DNA of 59,807 nt from a virus. Positions 874 to 59,807 of the stretch are shown piece after piece (position 1 is the stretch's first letter; each line of letters begins with the position of its first letter). The position numbers and the translations under genes are program-made. A model generated the notes under the pieces. The model worked only from the letters and a program-made list of their open reading frames with translations, was not told the DNA's origin and did no database searches. The stretch lies in the IMG/VR virus record IMGVR_UViG_3300045988_174840; one strand, 5' to 3'.

Positions 874-1170
874 ATTTATTTTTTATTGTGCAAAGTGATG
901 AAAATTTTACATAAAAATCATAGTATTTTTGTTAAAATGTACAAATGTAGAAAAATAATGCGGATTTAGGCAGATTTTTGTGCATTTTGCTATCTTAAAT
1001 ATCACATATTGTGTTTCTGCGTGTCAAAAAAGGTATGATTTTTTATTAAAATTTCGTCACTTTGCACAAGGTGTAGAAAATCTTAGCATTATTTTATTAA
1101 ATTTTGTACATTTTGTACACCATGTCAAAAAATGGGATTTTTTTAATTTATTTTTTGTGCAAATTGCCTA

Positions 1171-1200
1171 TTGACAAAAAGGTGCTAGATGTGGTATAAT
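1171..1200 (+). promoter_or_regulatory. consensus promoter P1 (TTGACA-17-TGG-TATAAT, extended -10)
   Basis: Exact TTGACA and TATAAT hexamers with a 17-nt spacer and TGn. The promoter reads into the GC hairpin CGGGGTGCCCCG at 1208..1219. Confidence 0.7.
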
Positions 1201-1245
1201 AAAATTTCGGGGTGCCCCGACCCCGAACGGAATTCGTCTACTTCC

Positions 1246-1274
1246 ATTATAGCATACTCGAGCCACCTTGTCAA
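1246..1274 (-). promoter_or_regulatory. consensus promoter P2 on the minus strand (TTGACA-17-TATAAT), left arm of an inverted repeat
   Basis: Reverse complement of 1246..1274 reads TTGACA, a 17-nt spacer, then TATAAT. It is convergent with P1 across the 1208..1219 hairpin. Confidence 0.65.
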
Positions 1275-1332
1275 GAGAAAAAATGCACAAATTTTAGGAT
1301 AAAAATTTTGAAAAATTTGTGCATTTTTTCTC

Positions 1333-1361
1333 TTGACAAAATGTCTCAACTATGCTATAAT
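1333..1361 (+). promoter_or_regulatory. consensus promoter P3 (TTGACA-17-TATAAT), right arm of the inverted repeat
   Basis: Exact hexamers with a 17-nt spacer. The predicted transcript starts in the GC-rich hairpin 1366..1398, which contains the perfect palindrome GCTCGCGAGC. Confidence 0.7.
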
Positions 1362-1445
1362 GGAAGGCTCGGCTCGCATGGGCTGCTCGCGAGCCGGCTA
1401 TTATAACACATTTTCCGCGACTTGTCAACCCCTTTTAAAAAATTT

Positions 1446-1522
1446 TTTTATTTTCGTCATTTTGCATAAAAATAAAATTCAGCATTTTGCACAAATTTTA
1501 TTTTCGTCATTTTGCATAAAAA
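1446..1522. repeat. two copies of a 27-bp direct repeat TTTTATTTTCGTCATTTTGCATAAAAA, 50 bp apart
   Basis: Identical copies at 1446..1472 and 1496..1522. A related copy (TTTCGTCACTTTGCACAA) sits at ~1052..1073. Confidence 0.8.
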
Positions 1523-1549
1523 AACAAAAGCCTAAATTATATAGGCTTT
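1515..1549 (-). terminator. Rho-independent terminator for minus-strand gene 1568..1774; may also stop plus-strand transcripts from P1 and P3
   Basis: Hairpin AAAGCCTA-AATTATA-TAGGCTTT, followed on the minus strand by TGTTTTTTTATG. Confidence 0.65.
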
Positions 1550-1567
1550 ATCATTACTCTTATTAAG

Positions 1568-1774
1568 TTATTTAGTATTACATTTACATTTTGCTTCTGT
1601 AATAATTTCTGTCTGATTAATTTCTGTATTGCTATTGTTATTAAAAAAATGGTCTGAGCCTTTTGCTAAAAAAACTATTATAGTTGCTAGAATCATTCCG
1701 ATTATAAGAAAACCAATTAGACCATTCAAATCTCTTCTAAATTCTTCATCTGTTGGGGCTTTTTCTTCTCTCAT
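1568..1774 (-). CDS. small membrane protein (68 aa, one transmembrane helix)
   Basis: Track ORF with the hydrophobic segment LIGFLIIGMILATIIVFLA. Confidence 0.45.
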   Translation of the reverse strand: MREEKAPTDEEFRRDLNGLIGFLIIGMILATIIVFLAKGSDHFFNNNSNTEINQTEIITEAKCKCNTK

Positions 1775-1820
1775 TTATTTTTTCCTTTTTTTAGAGTTGT
1801 GAGTTGTGAATTTCATGGAC

Positions 1821-2000
1821 TTAATTATTATTAAGTCCATGAAACTTTTTATTTTCTCGTTTCATTATTGTTTCATAAGCAATCTCTACTATTTCTTTTG
1901 AAATATTTTGATTTTCTGCTATTTTACAGAACATAATCACTGTATCATTTTCAAACCCTTTTACTTTAATTACATTATCCATCATCTCTGTTCTTGTCAT
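1821..2000 (-). CDS. small early protein (59 aa, MTRTEMMDNVIKVKGFENDTVIMFCKIAE...)
   Basis: The first 7 codons of track ORF 1821..2021 lie inside the conserved promoter leader. The true ATG at 2000 follows an AAGAGAGG ribosome-binding site. Confidence 0.5.
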   Translation of the reverse strand: MTRTEMMDNVIKVKGFENDTVIMFCKIAENQNISKEIVEIAYETIMKRENKKFHGLNNN

Positions 2001-2032
2001 TATTGCTTTCCTCTCTTTCATTTGATAATGTT

Positions 2033-2061
2033 ATTATACTATAAAGTCGGCTACTTGTCAA
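2033..2061 (-). promoter_or_regulatory. early promoter-leader cassette copy (TTGACA-17-TATAAT plus leader AACATTATCAAATGAAAGAGAGG)
   Basis: Reverse complement shows the consensus hexamers. The leader is shared with cassette copies at 2956, 3438, 3784, 4170, 4921 and 5977. Confidence 0.7.
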
Positions 2062-2159
2062 CTACATTTTTTAAATGTTTAATTGCTTTTTCTCATTTTT
2101 ACTATCTTTTTCTTTTTTCTTTGTCGCATGAGTTTTTAAAACTCATGCGACTTTTACTA

Positions 2160-2285
2160 TTATTTTATTACTACTGCGTAAGCAAGTTCTACTGTTGTAT
2201 TTGAAACTTCACTTTCTGCTAATTTACAAAACCAGATTGTCAGTTCATCTTCAAAGCCTCTTGCTTTAATCACATTGTCCGTCAT
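2160..2285 (-). CDS. truncated paralog (41 aa, MTDNVIKARGFEDELTIWFCKLAESEV...) of the 1821..2000 protein
   Basis: Manual translation. It shares DNVIKxxGFExxxxIxFCKxAE with the neighbouring gene and has its own promoter at 2318..2346. Confidence 0.4.
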   Translation of the reverse strand: MTDNVIKARGFEDELTIWFCKLAESEVSNTTVELAYAVVIK

Positions 2286-2317
2286 TTCTTTTTTTACTGT
2301 TGTCTTTGACTGTTTTT

Positions 2318-2346
2318 ATATTATCACAAAAGCTTGATTTTGTCAA
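2318..2346 (-). promoter_or_regulatory. promoter (TTGACA-17-TAATAT) for the 41-aa paralog
   Basis: Hexamers found on the reverse complement. Confidence 0.5.
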
Positions 2347-2364
2347 GTTTTTGTGATATTTTTT

Positions 2365-2697
2365 TTACTTTTTTTGTTTAAAATTACTATGTAATTCAAT
2401 TACTTTACCGCAGTTGTCACAAGTCCAATAGTAAATTGTTCCGACATTTTTTATATAGTCTGCGTTTGCAAATCTCCATTTATTTCCGCACTCTACACAG
2501 TAGCCATTGTTCCAATTTACTTTATCGGATGATTGTTCAATTTTAATTAGCCATGTAAAAGTGCATCCTATTAAAAGAGCTAAGATAATGCCAATTACTG
2601 TTTTAATGATTCGATTTCCATTTTCATAAAAGATGTTTACCATAAATCCGCCAACGAATATTGTCATAAGAATCGTTACTAAAATTGTTCTAATCAT
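2365..2697 (-). CDS. membrane protein with two transmembrane helices and a C-terminal CxxC...CxxC zinc ribbon (110 aa)
   Basis: Hydrophobic N-terminal half, then CVECGN...CDNCGK. A promoter TTGACA-17-TATTAT lies upstream at ~2730-2760. Confidence 0.5.
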   Translation of the reverse strand: MIRTILVTILMTIFVGGFMVNIFYENGNRIIKTVIGIILALLIGCTFTWLIKIEQSSDKVNWNNGYCVECGNKWRFANADYIKNVGTIYYWTCDNCGKVIELHSNFKQKK

Positions 2698-2720
2698 TTT
2701 TTAATTCCTTCTTTCTTTAT

Positions 2721-2921
2721 TTATTTATTATTACTATCTCTCTTAACTATATTTATAATATCACATTTTTCGGTTTTTGTCAAGCCTTTTTCCTCTTTTA
2801 AAATTCTATTGATTTGGTTTTTAATATCCTTCAAATCTTCAAGACTGCAATAAACTTTATCACCCCAACCGCCTTTAATTGTATAAGGATAACTCTTATC
2901 ATCACTTTTTTCTACTGTCAT
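2721..2921 (-). CDS. small early protein (66 aa, MTVEKSDDKSYPYTIKGGWGDKVYC...)
   Basis: The first 21 codons of track ORF 2721..2984 are the translated promoter cassette. The true ATG at 2921 follows the conserved leader and an AGAGAGAGG ribosome-binding site. Confidence 0.5.
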   Translation of the reverse strand: MTVEKSDDKSYPYTIKGGWGDKVYCSLEDLKDIKNQINRILKEEKGLTKTEKCDIINIVKRDSNNK

Positions 2922-2955
2922 TTTTATCAACCTCTCTCTTTCATTTGATAATGTT

Positions 2956-2984
2956 ATTATACTATAGGTCTTAACAAAAGTCAA
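2956..2984 (-). promoter_or_regulatory. early promoter-leader cassette copy (TTGACT-17-TATAAT). The -35 sits inside hairpin GGTCTTAAC-AAAA-GTCAAGACC, followed on the plus strand by TATTTTATTTTTT
   Basis: Seen on the reverse complement. The hairpin plus T-run reads as a terminator on the plus strand. Confidence 0.65.
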
Positions 2985-3002
2985 GACCTATTTTATTTTT
3001 TC

Positions 3003-3404
3003 TCAAATTTTTGTTATTCCTCTGTCTTTCAAATATTCACAAAAACTATCAGAGTCAAGCATTTTCGCAATGTCTTTCATTGAAACGTTCATTTTGTTAT
3101 ACACACAACGTACTTCAATAGGTTTAAATTTTTTTTCTGTAATAGCTGTTGATAAAGAATCTTCTACATTGCTTAATCGAACAACTCTTTTTTTAAAGAA
3201 ATTTTTTGAAATTTCAGCATTTATAAATAAACCTTTTTCAACTAAATTAATCAGTTCGTCAAAAGTGTTGATTGTAAAGTTCCTTGTCTTTGCTTCTGCT
3301 TCTTCTGGGGTAAGGTATCTTACGTGTTCCCAGATACTTGTATCAACAAAGTTTTTTCGACCCTCTATTCTGTACTTGAATCTATAATCATAAACTTCTT
3401 TCAT
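3003..3404 (-). CDS. hypothetical early protein (133 aa)
   Basis: Track ORF 3003..3413 starts at TTG. The ATG (MKEVYDYRF) at 3404 follows the leader AAGAAAGAGGTTGATAAAA. Confidence 0.5.
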   Translation of the reverse strand: MKEVYDYRFKYRIEGRKNFVDTSIWEHVRYLTPEEAEAKTRNFTINTFDELINLVEKGLFINAEISKNFFKKRVVRLSNVEDSLSTAITEKKFKPIEVRCVYNKMNVSMKDIAKMLDSDSFCEYLKDRGITKI

Positions 3405-3437
3405 TTTTATCAACCTCTTTCTTTATTTTCTATATTT

Positions 3438-3466
3438 ATTATACAGTATCTATTGACTTTTGTCAA
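3438..3466 (-). promoter_or_regulatory. early promoter-leader cassette copy (TTGACA-17-TATAAT)
   Basis: Reverse complement. The same downstream element TCAAGACCTATTTTATTTTTT occurs as at 2984. Confidence 0.65.
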
Positions 3467-3481
3467 GACCTATTTTATTTT

Positions 3482-3742
3482 TTATTTTGGAAGGATAACC
3501 TCAGCTTCGACAGGTACTACTTTCTCAGATGCCATAAAAGCTTTCATATATCCCGTAGCAAGATTAACCGCAATGAATCTACCTTTTTGTCTTTCCAAGA
3601 AAAAACCGCTATTCCTATCAATAATCATGTACAACCCGATTTCATCAATACCACCTCTTTGACTAATACTGAAAAAAGTTTTTCCTATTGTCAAGTCATT
3701 GATGCAAATTTCTGTTGCTTTTTTATCATAGTTGATTTTCAT
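3482..3742 (-). CDS. hypothetical early protein (86 aa, MKINYDKKATEICIND...)
   Basis: Track ORF with the cassette promoter 3784..3812 upstream. Confidence 0.5.
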   Translation of the reverse strand: MKINYDKKATEICINDLTIGKTFFSISQRGGIDEIGLYMIIDRNSGFFLERQKGRFIAVNLATGYMKAFMASEKVVPVEAEVILPK

Positions 3743-3783
3743 TTTTGTTTTCCTCTCTTTTTCTTTCTTTTATTTCTGTATTT

Positions 3784-3812
3784 ATTATATCATGTAGGGG
3801 CTGAAATGTCAA
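3784..3812 (-). promoter_or_regulatory. early promoter cassette copy (TTGACA-17-TATAAT). The -35 is embedded in hairpin AGGGGCTGAAATGTCAACCCCT (3796..3817)
   Basis: Reverse complement. The plus strand shows the hairpin followed by ATTTATTTTTTAAT. Confidence 0.65.
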
Positions 3813-3826
3813 CCCCTATTTATTTT

Positions 3827-4135
3827 TTAATGATTAAACCGCAGATAATTTTTAATCCAGTTTTTACCAAACTCTTTTTCTAACTGTTTTTCCTCTTCTG
3901 GGTTCGTTTCCATGATTGAGATTTTCATAATTGAATCCCAGTCCATAGTTGTAAACCACGTTCCCTCTTTCATGCCTTTACTAAAGTGAAAAGTGTCAAG
4001 AATAAAATCCATTGTTTCCTGTCGTTTAATTGTTTTCATACATTCTTCTAAAGAAAGAACCCGATTGTCAAAAACTGGTTTAGTTTCAAAACCTGTTACT
4101 TTCCATCCGCTAATTTTACTTTTAATTTTTAACAT
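3827..4135 (-). CDS. hypothetical early protein (102 aa)
   Basis: Track ORF 3827..4144 starts at TTG. The ATG (MLKIKSKISGW) follows the leader AAAAAGAGAGGTTGATAAAA. Confidence 0.5.
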   Translation of the reverse strand: MLKIKSKISGWKVTGFETKPVFDNRVLSLEECMKTIKRQETMDFILDTFHFSKGMKEGTWFTTMDWDSIMKISIMETNPEEEKQLEKEFGKNWIKNYLRFNH

Positions 4136-4169
4136 TTTTATCAACCTCTCTTTTTCATTTGATAATATT

Positions 4170-4198
4170 ATTATACACTACTTTTGAAAATCTGTCAA
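4170..4198 (-). promoter_or_regulatory. early promoter-leader cassette copy (TTGACA-17-TATAAT)
   Basis: Reverse complement of TCATTTGATAATATTATTATACACTAC...TGTCAAGAC. Confidence 0.65.
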
Positions 4199-4300
4199 GA
4201 CTTTTTTATTTTTTTCTTAACTATTTTTTTTACTTTCAACCATGTTTTTTGTTGTTGCTTTTTTATCATAATTAATTTTCATTTTAATTACCTCTCTTTC

Positions 4301-4483
4301 TTATTTAATTTCTTTAAAGATACTTTCATCTGTGGCATTACATAACTTATTATTTACGTTATACTTAGCATAAAGCCACTTTTTACAATCCCATTTTAGC
4401 GGACAATGATAACAAGTTGTAGTAAAAGCCGTGGTTTCCATCGGAATTGCAAGAAATATCTTTTTAAGTTTTTTAGTTATCAT
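4301..4483 (-). CDS. hypothetical early protein (60 aa, Cys-containing)
   Basis: Track ORF with a strong AAGGAAGGAG ribosome-binding site. Promoter 4517..4545 lies upstream. Confidence 0.5.
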   Translation of the reverse strand: MITKKLKKIFLAIPMETTAFTTTCYHCPLKWDCKKWLYAKYNVNNKLCNATDESIFKEIK

Positions 4484-4516
4484 ATTATTTTTTTCTCCTT
4501 CCTTTTAACTATCTTT

Positions 4517-4545
4517 ATAATACCATATTAAAATTATTTTGTCAA
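4517..4545 (-). promoter_or_regulatory. promoter (TTGACA-17-TATTAT)
   Basis: Hexamers on the reverse complement. Confidence 0.5.
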
Positions 4546-4624
4546 TCCCCTTTTATAAAAAATTATAAAAAAGGAAGATTTTTTATCTTCCTTTTACTTT
4601 TGTTTTATTCTTGTTTTTTTATTT

Positions 4625-4786
4625 TTATCTTAATAATCTTAATAAATAGTTATTTTCATGCTCTTTCAAAAAAGCGTTAATTTCTTCTATTGTTTCAGCG
4701 TAAATCTCGCCTGTCTCAGTGTCTACAAGCATCAATTTTTTACTTCCTAAAAATAATCCTAAATCTAACATATTTAAGCCCTCCAT
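4625..4786 (-). CDS. small hypothetical protein (53 aa, MEGLNMLDLGLFLGSKKLMLVDTETGEIYAETIEE...)
   Basis: Manual translation of an ORF below the track cutoff. Its start overlaps the stop of the upstream 39-aa ORF (TAATG). Confidence 0.3.
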   Translation of the reverse strand: MEGLNMLDLGLFLGSKKLMLVDTETGEIYAETIEEINAFLKEHENNYLLRLLR

Positions 4787-4905
4787 TAAGAAATTTTTAC
4801 CAGATAACCGTTTGTATTTTTTTCTACTGAAAAAATGTATTGATTATCTTTTAAGTATTTTTTTACAGTTTCAAATGCTTTTCGAGTTGTCAGTAACATT
4901 GTCAT
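4786..4905 (-). CDS. small hypothetical protein (39 aa, MTMLLTTRKAFETVKKYLKDNQYIFSVEKN...)
   Basis: Manual translation. It follows cassette leader ...AAAGAGAGGTAAAGGGAT and a promoter near 4921..4970. Confidence 0.3.
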   Translation of the reverse strand: MTMLLTTRKAFETVKKYLKDNQYIFSVEKNTNGYLVKIS

Positions 4906-5083
4906 ATCCCTTTACCTCTCTTTCATTTGATAATACTATGATACTATATTTCTTTGCTTTTGTCAAGCATTTTAGGAAAATTTTCTAAAGATTTTTTTAT
5001 GCGGATTTCCGCTGGAAAAACCTGAACTTAAAGAGATTATAGGCGAACCGACTCCAGAACTATCAAGTTCGGGAGTCCCTTTT

Positions 5084-5254
5084 TTATTTAAGGAATGATT
5101 CTAAAGCCTTGTAGCATAAATCAGCGTTTTCTTTATCTTTTATGCTAGTACCTTTAGAAAAGTCATTCATAGCGGCTGTCAGTAGTTCTGGTACTGAAAT
5201 AAATTCAAATACCAACTGTAAAGCCGCCAATTCATTAAGATTGACTTTTTTCAT
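5084..5254 (-). CDS. small hypothetical protein (56 aa, MKKVNLNELAALQLVFEFISVPELL...)
   Basis: Manual translation. An AAAGGAGATAAG ribosome-binding site and a TATAAT -10 lie upstream. Confidence 0.35.
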   Translation of the reverse strand: MKKVNLNELAALQLVFEFISVPELLTAAMNDFSKGTSIKDKENADLCYKALESFLK

Positions 5255-5400
5255 CGGTTCTTTCTTATCTCCTTTTTAAATATTTTATTTTCTTTACATT
5301 ATTATTATATCAAATTTTTTAATAAAAATCAAAAAAGATACTTTATCTAAACAAGCAAAGAAAAGGGCTGAACTTATTCCGCCCTTTTCCCGCTTCCCCG

Positions 5401-5667
5401 CTATCCTATTATCTCTGCATTTGTAATAATATCATCTGTCACGTTGTCAGTCCCTAAAGAATCCATGTATAATTTAACTCTATCTTTTGCTTTAAAACCG
5501 TCTCCATAGAAACTCCAAACATGTCCGTAGCTATCCATAACCACCACCTCATCATTAAAAGAGCTAATCACTTTAGCTTCTCTTGTATACTTAGTAAAGC
5601 TACCAAAACCGCAAATACTACTTAAAACTGCACTTACTGCTAATCCTAAAATCACCTTTTTCATCAT
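5401..5667 (-). CDS. secreted or lipoprotein-like small protein (signal peptide MMKKVILGLAVSAVLSSIC)
   Basis: Track ORF 5401..5679 starts at TTG. The first ATG at 5667 is followed by a hydrophobic signal sequence. Confidence 0.45.
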   Translation of the reverse strand: MMKKVILGLAVSAVLSSICGFGSFTKYTREAKVISSFNDEVVVMDSYGHVWSFYGDGFKAKDRVKLYMDSLGTDNVTDDIITNAEIIG

Positions 5668-5669
5668 AT

Positions 5670-5948
5670 CTAACTCCAACCTCTTTCTTTCTTAATCTTT
5701 TCGTATCTTTCTTTTGCTTCTTTTTCAATCTTCTTTTTGTCATACATTCTAATTTTCATTCTAGTATATCCGTCTCTTTTTAAACACCAACGTTCTGTTT
5801 TACGTTGTACTACTATTTTATCAATAGCTCTTTGCTGTACCTCTTGCTTATGAGTGTTGTAATATTTGATACTCTCAATTTCTAATAAAGTACTTATTGG
5901 TCTGTACTTATTGGTTACACTAAACAAAGTGCATTGAATTGTTATCAT
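5670..5948 (-). CDS. hypothetical basic protein (92 aa, K/E/R-rich C-terminus)
   Basis: Track ORF. Cassette promoter 5977..6005 and leader AAAAGAGAGGTGATAAGAAG lie upstream. Confidence 0.5.
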   Translation of the reverse strand: MITIQCTLFSVTNKYRPISTLLEIESIKYYNTHKQEVQQRAIDKIVVQRKTERWCLKRDGYTRMKIRMYDKKKIEKEAKERYEKIKKERGWS

Positions 5949-5976
5949 CTTCTTATCACCTCTCTTTTCAAGTATT

Positions 5977-6005
5977 ATTATACTACCTTATTATACCATT
6001 GTCAA
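5977..6005 (-). promoter_or_regulatory. early promoter-leader cassette copy (TTGACA-17-TATAAT)
   Basis: Reverse complement reads CTTGACAATGGTATAATAAGGTAGTATAATAATACTTGAAAAGAGAGG. Confidence 0.65.
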
Positions 6006-6412
6006 GCGTTTATTTATAGTATTTTTATTCGTCTTAATGCATATTTATTTATGTATATTTATTCACATTGCTAGTTAGCTTTACATATTTTATATTTATA
6101 TCCTTTTATAAATTTTATAAATTAAATTATAAAATAAAATATAATATATCAGTTATTGCATTGTTTTACTTAATATTTATTTAAGCATATCTTTCTTATT
6201 ATACTATTATGTTATTCTATTATAACTATTATAAGACAAGAGTCTTACGTTGAATACACTATTATTATTATTGTAACACTTCTATAAAAGTAATTACATA
6301 ATATAAAATATTATTATACTTATACTTTGTATGTATTGTTATAGTATAATATTATTATACTGTTATTATTATTATTATTATTATCTTTCCTTTATCTTAA
6401 GCTTAATCTCTC

Positions 6413-6441
6413 ATTATAACACCTTTAGCTCATTCTGTCAA
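6413..6441 (-). promoter_or_regulatory. consensus promoter (TTGACA-17-TATAAT) reading leftward into the 6000-6400 AT-rich non-coding block
   Basis: Reverse complement reads TGTCTATTGACAGAATGAGCTAAAGGTGTTATAATGAGAG. The -35 lies within a TGTC-N4-GACA palindrome. Confidence 0.65.
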
Positions 6442-6720
6442 TAGACATTTTACACAATTTTTTCTTTTGATTTTCGTGCAGATTGACCATTGACATTTCT
6501 TGTCTATTGACATTTTGTACAAAAATCAAATTATATTTTTGTATACTTTTACCATTGACAGGACTTGTCAATAGACATAATGCACAAAATTTTCCTTGCA
6601 TTTTTGTGCAATTTTACCTATTGACAAACTCATTTTAGGAAAATATCTTTGTGCATTTTTTACAAAAATTTAGCCAAAAATTTGTGCATTTTGTCTATTG
6701 ACAGGCTTCTCGGAGCGTTG
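6420..6720. repeat. cluster of 7 YTATTGACA sites in both orientations, including two TGTC-N4-GACA palindromes, interleaved with TTTGTGCA motifs
   Basis: CTGTCAATAGACA at ~6436 and ~6566. CTATTGACA at ~6503, ~6618 and ~6695. CCATTGACA at ~6487 and ~6553. Confidence 0.75.
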
Positions 6721-7261
6721 CGAAAGTATACGCTCCGATGGTAGATGGCAAGCTACCAATAGCCAATAAAATTCTAATCTTCTTGCTTTATTTTAATTAT
6801 TTAAAGAATTTATTTTATTAGTTTAACTCTTTCTCCTCTTTATTTAAAATAATGTGTTCAAAATCCTTCTGAACAAAAAACATATCCTCTTTGGAAAATG
6901 ATTTGAAAAATTATTTGTTAGGCGGTGTTTTGTTGCTTCTTACTCAAAAGAAAAGACCAATCTACAGACCATACCCAAACATAATACCCGGGCTATATTA
7001 AAGGATTAAAATTTTTTACTTTTATAAAAAGATAGTGTTCTCCACAATTCTCTCTCCAAAAAAATTTTTAAATCTAAAAATTGAAGAAAATGAAGAAGAA
7101 AAAATTGAAATAATTCTCCTTCCAAAAATTTTAGAATCTAAGAATCTAAAATAAAAACTTTAAGGATTCTAAATATTAAAAAATTTTCTTCTTCTTCTTC
7201 TTTAAAAAATGCGTGAGTGTCAAGTTAATCTCCGAAATACGTTTAAAAGCTTAGTAATCAT

Positions 7262-7924: not shown

Positions 7925-7953
7925 TTGACAAAAAAATTTTTTTGTGGTATAAT
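7925..7953 (+). promoter_or_regulatory. consensus promoter (TTGACA-17-TGG-TATAAT) for the morphogenesis operon
   Basis: Exact hexamers with an extended -10, almost identical to P1 at 1171. AAAGGAGA ribosome-binding site and ATG at 7981. Confidence 0.65.
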
Positions 7954-7980: not shown

Positions 7981-9138
7981 ATGACACCAATAATAATAGA
8001 AGATGAAGCTTTTGAGGAGAATATTTTAGAAGAAGAAAAAACAACAGAAAAACAAATCAAAGAAGAAAATATACAAACTACTATTAAATTAGATTATTCT
8101 TTAGAGACTCCTGAAGAGCGGAATGAATTAGTTAAAAAAATTATAAATAATACTCCTTCTGAGCAATTAACACCTAGATATTTAGAAATATTGTCAGATT
8201 ACATTATTTTTGCTATGGATAAACAAGAGCGGAAACAAAAGCAAATATTAACTGATAATCACATGGTCACAGTTAACAAAAGAGAAACTTCTTTTGAAGG
8301 ATTAGTTGGTCGCTTAGAGAATGGCGAAGATGGCATTTATAATATGATTGCTAATGATAAGAATATTATCTTTACACCTAAATTTCAAATAACTCAACAA
8401 GATATTGCGGAAATCCCCGAGTTAAAGCAACTTGTAGACGCGATTGCGGAAGTTGAAAAAGCTGAGAAAAAAGCAGTTGGTAAAAAGAAATTTTTATTAA
8501 AAAAGCAACTTATTGCTATGAGACAAGATCAATATGTAATTAGAAGTGCATATAAGCCGCCAATTTATTGTATGAACGCAATTAAAAGTTTTAGCAAAAT
8601 TGATTTTGATGAAAATGTTTCTATTAGCGGAGATGATGAAATTGAAGATAATAGCTTAGTTTCTTTTTTTAATCCTAAGCACGTATCTGCGTTATTATGT
8701 AACTATTCCCGCCTAAAAGAAGATGCATGGGGAAAATTCTATAGTGATTCATACTTTTTAATGGAAGATTTAGATACATTAATAGAAAAGACTTTAAGAG
8801 ACAGCTATCCAATGTATTATGACCTCTTGATTTATAAAATAGATGGAAAACAAAATCTTGAAATTCAAAGCCTATTGAATCAAAAGCATAATGTAAAACA
8901 TTCAGTGGAATATATATCATCTTTGTGGCGGAATAAGATACCTAAGCTATTGTCAGAGCAAGCTCAGGAAGACTACTTAATTTGGTATTATACGACTCAG
9001 AAGAAGGGAAAATGGAAAAAATGTTCCCGCTGTGGGGAAATCAAATTAGCTCATAATAAATTTTTTTCAAAGAATAAGACAAGCAAAGATCATTTTTACA
9101 GTATATGTAAATGTTGTCGAAATAAGAAAAATAAGTAA
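7981..9138 (+). CDS. hypothetical protein with a C-terminal Cys4 zinc ribbon (385 aa)
   Basis: CSRCGEIK...CKCCRNKKNK at the C-terminus. First gene of the late operon. Confidence 0.55.
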   Translation: MTPIIIEDEAFEENILEEEKTTEKQIKEENIQTTIKLDYSLETPEERNELVKKIINNTPSEQLTPRYLEILSDYIIFAMDKQERKQKQILTDNHMVTVNKRETSFEGLVGRLENGEDGIYNMIANDKNIIFTPKFQITQQDIAEIPELKQLVDAIAEVEKAEKKAVGKKKFLLKKQLIAMRQDQYVIRSAYKPPIYCMNAIKSFSKIDFDENVSISGDDEIEDNSLVSFFNPKHVSALLCNYSRLKEDAWGKFYSDSYFLMEDLDTLIEKTLRDSYPMYYDLLIYKIDGKQNLEIQSLLNQKHNVKHSVEYISSLWRNKIPKLLSEQAQEDYLIWYYTTQKKGKWKKCSRCGEIKLAHNKFFSKNKTSKDHFYSICKCCRNKKNK

Positions 9139-23357: not shown

Positions 23358-23386
23358 TTGACAAAAGAAAAATTTTATAGTATAAT
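23358..23386 (+). promoter_or_regulatory. internal consensus promoter (TTGACA-17-TATAAT) ahead of the chaperone-like and tape-measure genes
   Basis: CTTGACAAAAGAAAAATTTTATAGTATAAT. Confidence 0.55.
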
Positions 23387-55905: not shown

Positions 55906-57322
55906 TTATTCTCCTTCCATACCATATCTAACATGCTCTAGTTTCATATCTGAACCATTGACGTCAATAATCTTGTAGAGCTGATGGGTAGGGGTATGTT
56001 TATACGATTTAGTCTGAAATGTATCTCCACGCCTAAACCCAGTACACATTACTTTTGTTCCTCTTTGAAACCAGCCTTTTTCCATAACTTTTTTAGTTCC
56101 ATCTTCTTGCTTTTCAGAAATTTGTCTCCCAAACATAGCAAAGTAATCTTTTGTAAATTTTACATTAACAACTCCAGAAGTTGTTAATAATGATATTGAA
56201 GAACGAGCATCATTTTTACTGATTACAGTGCCAATGATTTTATAAGTCTTATAAATAGGGATTTCTTTTCCATTTCTTTTGAAAAAATAATCTACAACAG
56301 GCTCTTCGGGTAATTTAGAAAAATCTGAAATTCCATACTTTAAAGTATCAATATTTATTAATTCATGTGGATGATAATAAAAACATAAGCTTTCCATTTC
56401 CCACGCGGAAATATTTCCTTTAGCATATTTATTCCAAGAGTCAAGAAATAAAGCCTCATTAAATTCTTTTAATACTGTCTGTTGATTCTCTTTAAGCCAA
56501 TCTCTAGCTCTATCCATGCCTTTTTGATACTTTTTATCCCATTTGTTTTGTAAAATACAAACGCATCCGTTTATCACTTCAAGGTCTTCCATATCGTATC
56601 TTTGATTGTAGAATTTTTCACAAGCATCATCAAAGACATAATATTTTCCAACTTTTTTCTCAGTTTTTAGATACTTATTAAAGAAAAATAATCTTTTCAT
56701 ACTATCTAAAGAAGGTGGAATTAAGTCTTTTTGAATTAAACCATTAAAGTTTTGTAGCGTTAATTTCTTTTTTGGTTCACTAACAACAGACAGATAATAT
56801 ATCATTACAAGCACTCTTGGTTCAACATTTAATTCTTTTGCCCATTCTAATTCCAGTTTATCAAAAGCTCCGCTCTTTATTAAGGAAATCATTGCAGATT
56901 TATTTAAAGGACATCTTATCATAAAGTCTTTAATGCTTTTATATGGTCTACCAGAAAAAATCTGCTCAATAATTGGTGCACCTACATTACTCAATGCTTT
57001 CATTCCAAAAAGAATTTCGTTGTTTTCAACATCTGGCTTAAAGCTATAGTCAGATTTATTTATATCAACTAAAGAAATTTTTATTCCTCTTGATAAAATA
57101 TCTCCAATAGCCTTAGCTATTTTACTATAATCCGTAGATTTTTCTTTCTTTTTACTTTCTTCTGTTTCTTCTTCATTTTCAATATTATCTTCTTCTAAGG
57201 CTCCACTATTTACAATTAAACACGCGGTATTCCAATAGATAGGATTCCATCTTGTGGCTATGTATATAGTTTGAAATCCTATGAAAGAGTAAGCCAGGGC
57301 ATGTATGCATAATTTAAAATTA
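55906..57322 (-). CDS. dnaE: DNA polymerase III alpha subunit (DnaE-type), C-terminal exon or segment
   Basis: The open frame extends upstream of track ORF 55906..57003 to the stop at 57334. It encodes ...FNFKLCIHALAYSFIGFQTIYIATRWNPIYWNTACL (cf. DnaE GYGFNKSHSAAYALVSYQT..HYPAEFMAA). The HhH region ALSNVGAPIIEQI...SLIKSGAFD and a C-terminal OB-fold follow. Confidence 0.7.
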
Positions 57323-58539
57323 CTGACTATTTTTTACAGACGTTGTAGTGAGATTTTGGCTTTTCTCTTGTCTGCACACTATTTCCCAAAACGTATCAAT
57401 AGTTTCAGTACTCCCCGTCTAACCAGGGATAGTCGATACAACATTTTTCTTTTAATAGATTTATTTATTATCTCTAAGAGGGTATTTATATTTTTCTTTT
57501 TTATGAGAACGTCCTGCGTTAATATTTTTAATTGTTGCATAGCTTTTATTCCATTTTTTTGCGATATCTTTTAAAGATAAATCTGTTTCTAAAATATCTT
57601 TTATAATACCTTGAATCCAGATTTCATTTTTAGCTTTATTACCACCTTTATCACAAAGAGGGTAGTTATCCTTATCACTATAAAAATATTTTCCTGTATT
57701 TATCATAGATAAAAATCCAGCTGATTTAATTCCAAAATCTTCTTGAATTGTTTTATATTTTTCTCCGCTTTTAATTCTATCTTTTATTTCTCTAATTTCT
57801 TTTTGAGAAAAGCGGCTTTTAGAATTTTTCTTTAAAGGATAATCAAACTCTTCATTAAAATAATTTGTTCCAGTATTTATATTAACTAAAAACGTTCTTT
57901 TTAACTTAGGAAAATAAATTTTTTCAATATCATCATATTCTTCATCATTCATTAGACGATTTTGGATATCAATAATTTCTTCTTTTTTAAAGAGTTTAGA
58001 TCGGTTTAATTTTTCTTCATACGTTAAAGGTTTTCTTTTATATCCTTGTCCGCCTAAAGTAATATTATATCCATTTTCATCTTTTAAAGAATGATAATAT
58101 TGAATAAAATAAATTTCTCTTTCGTCAATATATTCTTGAGATTCTCCATCAGCAATCTCTTCAAGAATATCAAAATTAAAATTATCCCAACCATATTTTC
58201 TTATGGCTGCGTGAAATGGCAAATTATAGCCAGAAGTTTTTTCATTAAAAGACTCACTTTTATGTCCATTTTTTCTTTTTTGAACATTATTAGTTTGTCC
58301 GATATAAATTTTACCATTTGTTTTATTTGTAAATTTATAAATATAGTACATAATATTCTCCTTATACATTGTTTTACTATTCTCATGTATAACTGAAAAA
58401 TACTATACCTCTATTAAAGAAATTTGTCACGAGATTTAACCCTCGTTAGCAATTAAAACCATATTTGCCAAATATGTAAATGTTTTAATTACCCCACTGA
58501 TAAGTGGTTAAGTGTGTAAGCACCATTCACACAATGCTA
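57323..58539 (-). other. ~1.2-kb intervening sequence interrupting dnaE; candidate group I intron carrying a homing endonuclease gene
   Basis: The upstream frame ends in-frame with ...GYSF then SIV-stop. The downstream frame has no nearby ATG or ribosome-binding site. The proposed junction, with the 5' exon ending in T and the intron ending in G, restores GYSFNFKLCIHALAY. Confidence 0.5.
57461..58351 (-). CDS. GIY-YIG homing endonuclease, free-standing inside the dnaE intervening sequence
   Basis: N-terminal YYIYKFTNKTNGKIYIGQT...KRKNGH (GIY-YIG motif). Perfect AAGGAG ribosome-binding site 6 nt before the second ATG at 58351; track ORF starts 6 codons earlier. Confidence 0.8.
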   Translation of the reverse strand: MYYIYKFTNKTNGKIYIGQTNNVQKRKNGHKSESFNEKTSGYNLPFHAAIRKYGWDNFNFDILEEIADGESQEYIDEREIYFIQYYHSLKDENGYNITLGGQGYKRKPLTYEEKLNRSKLFKKEEIIDIQNRLMNDEEYDDIEKIYFPKLKRTFLVNINTGTNYFNEEFDYPLKKNSKSRFSQKEIREIKDRIKSGEKYKTIQEDFGIKSAGFLSMINTGKYFYSDKDNYPLCDKGGNKAKNEIWIQGIIKDILETDLSLKDIAKKWNKSYATIKNINAGRSHKKEKYKYPLRDNK

Positions 58540-59807
58540 AAGCTATATCCCATCTGCGGACCTATGCCATATTTCCATACATAGTCTCCGAGTTCTTTTC
58601 TTTTAGCTTGTTCAATAACCTTCTTTTTCAATTCTGGAATTTTACTCATTTGTTTTTTACCAACAATTTTTCTCGCGGTGTTGGCTTCAGATAACTTAAA
58701 ACCGCAAATATCCTTATCCATTAACATACTCATTAATTGTTCTTGACTTGGCGGAACACCATAAGACTTTAAGAAATAAGGTTCTAATGTTTTCATCTCT
58801 TGAGGAGATAACCCCTCTCTTCTCATTTCTTGATACCAAAGATCAATATTTTTTTTATATCTTACATATTTTTCCATTGGCGTTTCTTGACCTTTTTCAC
58901 TAGTCATAAGTCTCATTAATCCATTAGCATCTGACATTTCAATTATTGAGGCTGGCTTAATTTTTTTTGCAGCCTGACTGCCTACATCGCTATCAAATTG
59001 AAAAATATTTAAAACTGAGTTGTTTTGCAGTGCTTTCCAACATTTTTTATCTTCGATAGGTAAAACACTTGGATGAAAATATTTTTCATACACTTCTTTT
59101 AAAGATAAATCTGATTCAATTTCATTATTAGCCTGTAGTAATTTAATTGTTTCTGCTAATTTATCCTGGACTTCAGTTACTAAGAAGTCATATTTTGTCA
59201 TACCTGCTGCTTCGCACATATGAAGATCCCATTGCGTAATAATTTCTCCTTTAGGAGTCCGCATAAAACATCCAAATTCATATGGGTCTTCATCAAAAAG
59301 GATTACTCCAGAAGCATGAGAACTCCTTTTGTTTACTAACCCTTCAATAGCAATCATAATATCTAATAAGCCAGGATATTTTTCTACCTCATTAGTAAAC
59401 ATCTTAATAGGCTTTCTATCTTTATCTGGGTTACCATTAATGGCATCTGATAAAGACCATAAAAAACCTCTTTCACTTGGAATTAAAGAAGATAAAAATT
59501 GAGCAGTGTCAACATCAATTCCGTCTGGATACTCTTCACTTCTATATCCGCGACAAGCAGTTAAAATAGTTGATCGAGTACCTTCAGTTCCAAAAGTGGC
59601 TATCAACGTACATCCTAAATTTTTTCGAGATAAAACATCAATATCTTTTTTAAAATTTTTTCCGCGTTCTTCCTTTATTTTCTTTAAAATTAAAGGTCTT
59701 TTACTTGGACTTAAATCTAAATCTATATCTCCAAGCTCTATACGCTCTTTATTTAAATATCTCCAGAAAGGAAGCTCCCATTCAATCGGATCTAGTTGAG
59801 TAATTCC
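58540..59807 (-). CDS. dnaE: DNA polymerase III alpha subunit (DnaE-type), upstream exon or segment, 5' partial (continues beyond the window)
   Basis: Track ORF 58527..59606 (IATFGTEGTRSTILTACRGY...) stays open in the same frame to the window edge at 59807. It ends at the conserved GYGF position. Confidence 0.7.

Follow-up and report, generated by a model that had tools for sequence, protein, structure and literature searches.

What reads a short motif that recurs around the early genes of an uncultivated phage, and to what effect? The DNA analyzed here, IMG/VR virus record IMGVR_UViG_3300045988_174840 (59,807 nucleotides, GC content 30%; hereafter the window), carries repeated copies of the 8-mer TTTGTGCA, which we call the box, in two regulatory hubs (860-1530 and 6420-6720, 972 bp together). 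Small leftward open reading frames (ORFs), mostly each with its own perfect or near-perfect TTGACA-N17-TATAAT promoter, occupy positions 1560-6000. An earlier sequence-only reading had proposed that this motif recurs in the two hubs and serves one regulator, or a promoter-recognition element, in coordinating the whole leftward module. Judged from the DNA sequence, the motif is real and conserved, and with slightly better than even confidence we read it as a docking site for a protein that would contact RNA polymerase, in the manner of an UP element or a class I/II activator site, and that would define a separate promoter class in cassettes at module boundaries.

Counting of exact boxes in the whole window gave 13 copies, where 2.57 are expected, a number reached in none of 100 shuffles. 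The hubs contain 9 of them against 0.23 expected from the hubs' own first-order composition (at most 2 in 1000 simulations), and when up to one mismatch was allowed, 19 copies against 3.5 expected (simulation maximum 10). In the other 58.8 kb, four exact copies (22029, 26977, 28738, 30313) compare with 1.7 expected, and at up to one mismatch 46 copies compare with 64 expected, which is no enrichment. As the excess in the hubs was obtained over simulations from hub composition, the frequency is not explained by AT-richness, and the objection that AT content accounts for the motif fails at 9 copies against 0.23. The exact copies of hub 1 lie at 977-984 (+), 1154-1161 (+), 1284-1291 (-), 1316-1323 (+) and 1488-1495 (-), and those of hub 2 at 6581-6588 (-), 6603-6610 (+), 6648-6655 (+) and 6681-6688 (+). 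Copies with one mismatch were found at 885 (+, ATTGTGCA), 938 (-), 1063 (-, CTTGTGCA), 1103 and 1112 (both +, TTTGTACA), 1463 and 1513 (both -, TTTATGCA), 6473 (+, TTCGTGCA) and 6514 (+)/6516 (-), where TTTGTACA forms a palindrome. Each of the 15 positions at which the sequence-only reading had placed a recurrent hub motif has an exact or one-mismatch copy no more than about 11 bp away, and the recurrence is thereby borne out. Taken together, the hubs are enriched, as had been claimed, whereas their number of two is an effect of the window edge: L001, a relative with 96-97% identity, has one more hub, some 3.3 kb beyond the left edge of the window, the early regions of more distant relatives contain 5-7 of them, and hubs follow one another at intervals of 1-3 kb in relatives.

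In six of the nine exact hub copies (1154, 1284 on the minus strand, 1316, 6581 on the minus strand, 6603 and 6681), TTGACA follows the box after 9-10 bp. At 1154, 1284 and 1316, this TTGACA is the -35 hexamer of a perfect TG-extended promoter and the box occupies approximately -52 to -45. The first of these composites, TTTGTGCA-N9-TTGACA at 1154..1176 (+), provides the upstream element and -35 of P+1171, with the TG-extended -10 TATAAT at 1195-1200; the same arrangement at 1269..1291 (-) belongs to P-1274 (-10 at 1251..1246) and that at 1316..1338 (+) to P+1333 (-10 at 1356-1361). The boxes at 1284 (-) and 1316 (+) form an inverted pair, 32 bp from start to start, as do those at 6581 (-) and 6603 (+), 22 bp from start to start, and the copies of these pairs point to divergent promoters. 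The 8-mer is the invariant core of an upstream promoter element of about 15-17 bp with the consensus wTTTGTGCA-WWW-TGNC, and in the identified copies its core carries G, G and C (GTGCA). A full palindrome, TTGTGCA-N3-TGCACAA, is restricted to the subset with a 10-bp spacer, the promoter-proximal half being degenerate (TGNCNAW) elsewhere. A second form, class B, is represented by the 18-mer TTKTGCAAARTGAYGAAA and has five copies, all in hub 1.

The distance between box and -35 hexamer follows the helical turn. In related loci (183 TTGTGCA copies), the box is separated from TTGAC by 9 bp in 32 cases, 10 bp in 9, 19 bp in 8 and 20 bp in 3, and after removal of duplicates by the same distances in 22, 9, 7 and 3 cases. 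IMG/VR was scanned with the pattern box-N{0,30}-TTGACA-N16-18-TATAAT and duplicates were removed; among the matches listed, which include 127 sites, spacers of 9, 10, 19, 20 and 30 bp occurred 37, 17, 12, 16 and 10 times, and other distances 0-5 times. The peaks recur among the matches listed from a scan of metagenome contigs, with 39, 10, 15 and 15 sites at 9, 10, 19 and 20 bp. The control 8-mer ACGTGTTT gave 1, 1, 0, 1 and 1 listed matches at 9, 10, 19, 20 and 30 bp, its profile being flat among the matches listed except for one redundant phage family at 28 bp. The box is oriented toward the promoter, and the site centre falls at about -43/-44, -53/-54 or -63/-64, one helical turn per step. 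As far as spacing and orientation on the DNA can tell, one-turn periodicity combined with fixed orientation marks an element that needs to face RNA polymerase. The suggestion that the motif is a promoter-recognition element or regulator site is thus upheld by a fixed distance to the -35, a promoter-ward orientation and 10-bp phasing in two collections, with a flat control.

Upstream of promoters of the sigma-A type, the box keeps to a single helical face, with its 3' end at about -45, or at -55 or -65, and it is part of bidirectional promoter/terminator cassettes that separate the gene modules of the early region. On the favoured reading, a sequence-specific protein would bind it and touch RNA polymerase, through either the alpha C-terminal domain (alpha-CTD) or sigma region 4. 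The effect would probably be activation rather than repression, and box promoters would be regulated apart from the A-tract promoters of early genes.

The relatives compared are viral loci from a search with the sigma-like protein of the window (n=18). The box is present in the early regions of loci whose sigma-like proteins are 96%, 72%, 63% and 47-48% identical, with the same architecture and diverged flanks. Inverted pairs are typically spaced 22 or 32-33 bp from start to start and lie between divergent promoters, and a TTTC-GGGAT element is often found beside the left copy of a pair. In the complete genome of phAss-1, 8 of 13 exact copies fall within 126.7-132.9 kb, one 6-kb early region that also shows 22-bp inverted pairs and N9-TTGAC composites. 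One sub-lineage, formed by L008, L009 and L012, lacks the box, as do the Enterococcus phage EF1 and the Enterocloster phage PMBT24, although a promoter-plus-GC-hairpin design is retained in L008, L012 and EF1 despite its absence. The cultured relatives EF1 and PMBT24 were therefore rejected as test systems, as both lack the box. A literature search with the box sequence returned primers and unrelated matches only, and the paper on phAss-1 contains nothing on promoters.

Box promoters also differ in composition from the other strong promoters of the window. The perfect promoters with an exact box (1171, 1274 on the minus strand, 1333) contain 22-26% A at -60 to -38, P-6441 with a variant box 52%, and box-less perfect promoters 52-70% in 10 of 12 cases. 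By this contrast in A content, the box takes the place of the usual A-tract, UP-like upstream region in a distinct promoter class. Coordination of the whole leftward module, as had been proposed, is not borne out. Those promoters of leftward early genes between the hubs that match the strict consensus (2061, 2984, 3466, 3812, 4198, 6005) are box-less and have 52-70% A instead, and the box promoters of the window fire into short GC-hairpin transcripts or non-coding DNA. Box promoters also drive hub-proximal units. Two face-to-face pairs of perfect sigma-A promoters, P+1171/P-1274 and P+1333/P-1428, each enclose a GC hairpin (30-45 bp). The hairpin at 1206..1227 between P+1171 and P-1274 is a minus-strand intrinsic terminator in which the complement of the -10 region of P+1171 supplies the U-tract, so that the P-1274 RNA should be only about 40 nt long; the one at 1366..1399 between P+1333 and P-1428 has a folding energy of -20.3 kcal/mol (z -3.5). 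The box-class promoters of relatives read TATAAT-GGAAATTCG, a GC stem-loop and then CGACAAAA, with stems that co-vary. The leftward box promoters of locus L014 combine weak -35 hexamers with good -10s, a combination frequent in relatives and expected for activator-dependent promoters.

Several observations weigh against the favoured reading. The box promoters of the window already have perfect -35 and -10 hexamers, for which an activator should be needless. Some boxes (977, 6566-6588, 6648, 6681) are without a usable -10 and others are off-phase; the class-B triplet repeats every 25 bp, and 34 bp separate it from the -35 of P-1428. Duplication accounts for part of the recurrence in the window, through one inverted copy of 55 nt and the tandem 65-bp units. 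Among the matches listed, metagenome sites without the hallmarks of the phage cassette have a nearly flat spacing profile, so that the phasing may belong to one family of phage cassettes and not to host promoters. The matches in host genomes were chosen by the search pattern itself and comprise listed matches only, and none of about 17 early ORFs of the window tested against Pfam and PHROG has a recognizable DNA-binding domain.

Some of these points would be accommodated if the box were the operator of a phage-encoded switch protein, a repressor or dual regulator that shuts off or re-times the hub promoters, an explanation that we consider rather unlikely. Arrays of boxes and inverted pairs between divergent promoters are in line with it, the many boxes without a -10 partner fit an array of binding sites better than promoters, strong phasing is seen, among the matches listed, in phage-cassette contexts only, and the box is lineage-specific, being absent or replaced in L008, L009, L012, EF1 and PMBT24. 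There is also precedent in the 0A boxes and p4 sites of the phi29 central promoter region (PMC2731898). Nevertheless, a box that stays upstream of the core promoter, at strict orientation and distance, speaks more for recruitment than for occlusion, the early ORFs of the window that were tested include no candidate regulator gene, and Clostridia promoters that appear to be chromosomal carry the box at -45 as well.

It is improbable, in our estimation, that the 8-mer is a functionless passenger in a duplicating and recombining promoter cassette, its recurrence reflecting common descent of the copies. P-1274 and P+1333 do constitute the 55-nt inverted duplication (1241-1295 / 1312-1366), hub 2 is largely built from 65-bp tandem units, and the entire cassette (GGGAT, box, -35, TG-extended -10, GGAAATTCG, GC hairpin) travels jointly in many contigs. 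Yet flanks and spacers diverge in distant relatives, which nonetheless retain the 8-mer at its distance from the -35, the box is found at three in-phase distances as well as in class-B composites with other neighbors, and 10-bp phasing would not result from neutral hitch-hiking. Least probable of all is that the boxes bind a replication initiator, partition or packaging protein and that hub 2 is an origin or genome-end region: the 6-7 composite sites in 270 bp beside the AT-rich stretch 6010-6420, mostly without a -10, and the adjoining conserved double hairpin and low-complexity non-coding region speak for it, but the AT-rich neighbor is confined to close relatives, for which reason an origin beside hub 2 was rejected, a constant distance and orientation to TTGACA-N17-TATAAT promoters is unexpected for origin iterons, and the hubs of relatives recur every 1-3 kb.

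If the box is a docking site for a polymerase-contacting protein, which known element does it resemble? UP elements, which the alpha-CTD contacts at rrnB P1 and at early phage promoters, SP82 Alu156 among them, lie at about -40 to -60, consist of A/T only, depend on the helical face and occur on very strong promoters. The box likewise accompanies very strong promoters, keeps to one helical face and lies directly upstream of the -35, at -52 to -45 with a 9-bp spacer, and occupies the place of the A-tract in the box-less promoters of the window; an A5-T3 run before its core resembles the distal UP subsite AAAWWTWTTTT. Unlike an UP element, it has the invariant G/C core GTGCA, is strictly oriented, occurs in inverted pairs and arrays and sometimes as a 17-bp palindrome, and is lineage-specific. 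A classical A/T-only UP element was ruled out by the conserved G/C core and the low A content. Activator sites are centred at -41.5 or -61.5 for CRP and about -42 for lambda cI at PRM, while the Mu Mor/C dyad lies at -43.5 and the P2 Ogr dyad near -55. The box shares with class I/II sites its helical phasing, at 9/10, 19/20 and 30 bp to the -35, and possibly a partial dyad symmetry, and the weak -35 hexamers of some relatives also fit; however, its sequence is unrelated to the sites of CRP, Mor/C, cI and Ogr, the promoter-distal half alone is well conserved, and many target promoters already match consensus.

The 0A box of Spo0A, for which a looser pattern TGNCGAA is also in use, deserves separate mention. 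TGACGAA in the class-B composites fits that looser pattern, and in their extended forms the box (TTTGTGCAAAA) and the 0A box (TTTGTCGAAAA) are alike except for the central dinucleotide. Nevertheless, the box core TGTGCAA has G-C for C-G at positions 4-5, and TGNCGAA is not enriched in the whole window (19 against 13.6 expected). The 0A-box consensus is TGTCGAA with paired boxes 3 bp apart, and in phi29 such host Spo0A boxes lie together with p4 sites in the central divergent promoter region A2c/A2b/A3 (PMC2731898). The paired 7-mers of class B are 2 bp apart instead of 3. With the core dinucleotide inverted, the spacing of boxes wrong and no window-wide enrichment, a Spo0A site was rejected. 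The general arrangement in phi29 is similar, in that in a lytic Firmicutes phage regulator sites clustered between strong divergent promoters set the transcription program, but no p4 homologue was seen in the window. Three further candidates were discarded: a sigma-54 promoter (TGGCAC-N5-TTGCW), as there is no GG element at the required distance from the TTGCA-like core; a DnaA box (TTATNCACA, reverse complement TGTGNATAA), as the family has a/t-T-T-G after TGTGCA and not WAA, although some copies fit; and an ECF-type (extracytoplasmic function) promoter (TGCAAC...CGTC), whose sequence requirements do not agree with the box. Finally, promoter-early stem-loop (PeSL) cassettes of T4-type phages were reportedly described by Arbiol and colleagues in 2010. 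Repeated cassettes of consensus promoter and stem-loop that flank small early ORFs and mark module boundaries are a common feature, but PeSLs are without a conserved upstream box or face-to-face promoter pairs, and the box marks just a subset of the cassettes here.

With respect to the protein that may read the box, a genome scan at spacers of 9-10 bp yielded at least 120 loci, mostly from Clostridia (Oscillospirales, Lachnospirales), and about 100 of the listed loci look chromosomal, including T-box leaders, tRNA operons and a MATE-pump leader. At chromosomal-looking loci of several Clostridia species, the flanks have diverged around a recognizable box at -45, -35 and -10, and flank positions left unspecified in the search are biased like the phage consensus (A/T at +8 to +10, T at +11, C at +14). 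These patterns are suggestive of box use in host chromosomes. A phage regulator among the early ORFs tested was considered and dropped, as there was no Pfam or PHROG match to a DNA-binding protein, the sigma-like protein having a PHROG match only. The idea that the first gene behind box promoters is an autoregulated regulator was rejected too, as the largest cluster is a deoxynucleoside monophosphate (dNMP) nucleotidase and not a DNA-binding protein. We lean, without strong conviction, towards a reader that belongs to the host machinery rather than being phage-encoded. Small helix-turn-helix (HTH) genes of the Xre family were observed behind promoters with one or sometimes several copies of TTTGTGCA, in Clostridia genome contigs L033, L044 and L112 as well as in viral contigs L141, L223 and L251; the box copies at these genes may be unrelated operators that share the core.

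The remaining sites of hub 1 belong largely to class B. One class-B composite, TTGTGCAAAGTGATGAAA at 886..903 (+), consists of the box, 2-3 bp and a TGAYGAA element, a second, TTGTGCAAAGTGACGAAA, lies at 1052..1069 (-), and the triplet at 1452..1519 (-) comprises 1452-1469, 1477-1494 and 1502-1519 upstream of the box-less P-1428. The exact box at 977..984 (+) is an orphan with no -35 at a phased distance and with TTTGTACA variants near, at 938, 1103 and 1112. Three tandem 65-bp units (6436..6618) make up most of hub 2, the first and third being divergent box pairs and the second degenerate. There, P-6441 at 6413..6458 (-) is a perfect TTGACA-17-TATAAT promoter whose -35 is preceded, at a distance of 9 bp, by ATTGTGTA, a degenerate box, and a variant composite, TTTCGTGCA-N9-TTGACA at 6472..6495 (+), has no good -10. 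The composite TTTGTGCA-N9-TTGACA at 6566..6588 (-) has no -10 at 16-18 bp and forms an inverted pair with the 6603 box, itself part of TTTGTGCA-N10-TTGACA at 6603..6626 (+) with a weak -10, TATCTT, after a 17-bp spacer. The exact box at 6648..6655 (+) lies 33 bp, or three helical turns, upstream of the 6681 box, which with TTGACA forms TTTGTGCA-N9-TTGACA at 6681..6703 (+), directly followed by a double hairpin (6710-6758) in place of a -10, an arrangement that distant relatives retain.

The 6698-6760 segment thus contains TTGACA and at once a very stable double hairpin (z -4.6), after which about 500 nt of AT-rich non-coding DNA extend over 6760-7260. A -35/-10 pair restored by cruciform formation at the 6698 TTGACA and the double hairpin was rejected, as 14 unpaired nt would be left and not 17. 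Box, TTGACA, two hairpins and low-complexity DNA are kept together in L014-L016, and L017 and L018 have box-TTGACA followed by a GC hairpin. On its other side, hub 2 adjoins a 400-bp non-coding stretch (6010-6420, about 16% GC) with ATTATTATAC-like repeats that is found in close relatives only. A conserved transcript start, TATAAT-GGAAAUUCG, GC stem-loop and CGACAAAA, was observed at 1200-1262 and 1361-1412 and in dozens of related loci (for example L004 3987, L158 5663, L254 5089); read from the opposite strand, the hairpin and the -10 complement make up an intrinsic terminator. The element might represent an abundant family of short RNAs or else act as a promoter/terminator insulator. Polymerases at the paired face-to-face promoters should exclude or collide with each other, and the face-to-face design recurs in L012, L149, L151, L199, L235 and L257. 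Small leftward early genes are preceded by repeated cassettes of promoter, 5' untranslated region and ribosome-binding site (2017-2078, 2940-3001, 3422-3483, 4154-4215, 4922-4983), 62-112 nt long and 65-76% identical, which are similar to the PeSL cassettes of T4-type phages.

As for the genome itself, the window showed no nucleotide similarity match to known phages in a phage collection, no tRNA genes were found in it, and Rfam covariance models at gathering score gave no match over its whole length. By the similarity of its proteins, the window is assigned to a clade of large siphovirus-like Firmicutes phages: its portal protein shares 78% and its sigma-like protein 70% identity with the counterparts in one human-faecal contig, the portal is 39% identical to that of uncultured phAss-1 (136 kb), and both proteins are 32-39% identical to those of Enterococcus phages EF1, EF5 and VRE9. 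The rightward module begins at 7981 with the sigma-like gene, followed by terminase, portal and structural genes. The sigma-like gene (7981-9138) has its own perfect sigma-A promoter at 7925 and encodes a 385-aa protein labeled sigma factor by PHROGs, with no match to a Pfam sigma-70 domain. Immediately left of hub 1 lies a dNMP 5'-nucleotidase (NT5C-like) gene (253-738), and such a nucleotidase is the commonest first gene behind the box promoters of relatives (L014, L113, L136, L147, L158, L179, phAss-1 130672). A perfect TTGACA-N17-TATAAT with an upstream A-tract lies within the structural gene module (23358-23386), and at 55906-59606 the DNA polymerase is split over two ORFs with a GIY-YIG-type homing endonuclease gene (57461-58369) between them.

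The phages that bear the box form a clade of uncultivated phages of gut and rumen Clostridia in a size class of about 135 kb, with contigs of up to about 160 kb. It is possible, though we hold it to be doubtful, that Clostridia and their large phages share an undescribed system of transcription control, in which a G/C-containing element at -45, -55 or -65, its face-to-face promoter/terminator cassettes and a factor associated with RNA polymerase would define a second class of sigma-A promoters. If this were true, the reader would be a clade-specific specificity of the alpha-CTD or a new global activator, the phages would gain a second, separately controlled sigma-A promoter class at their module boundaries, and the box may be a Clostridia promoter element not yet described. 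If the box were merely a cassette-borne UP variant, the result would be a modest refinement of promoter annotation. Being short, sharply defined and phase-locked, the box could be used for annotating promoters in metagenomic phage genomes and would be a candidate part for tuning expression in Clostridia. If a specific factor reads it, the box would be a first handle on early transcription in a widespread clade of large uncultivated phages of gut Clostridia.

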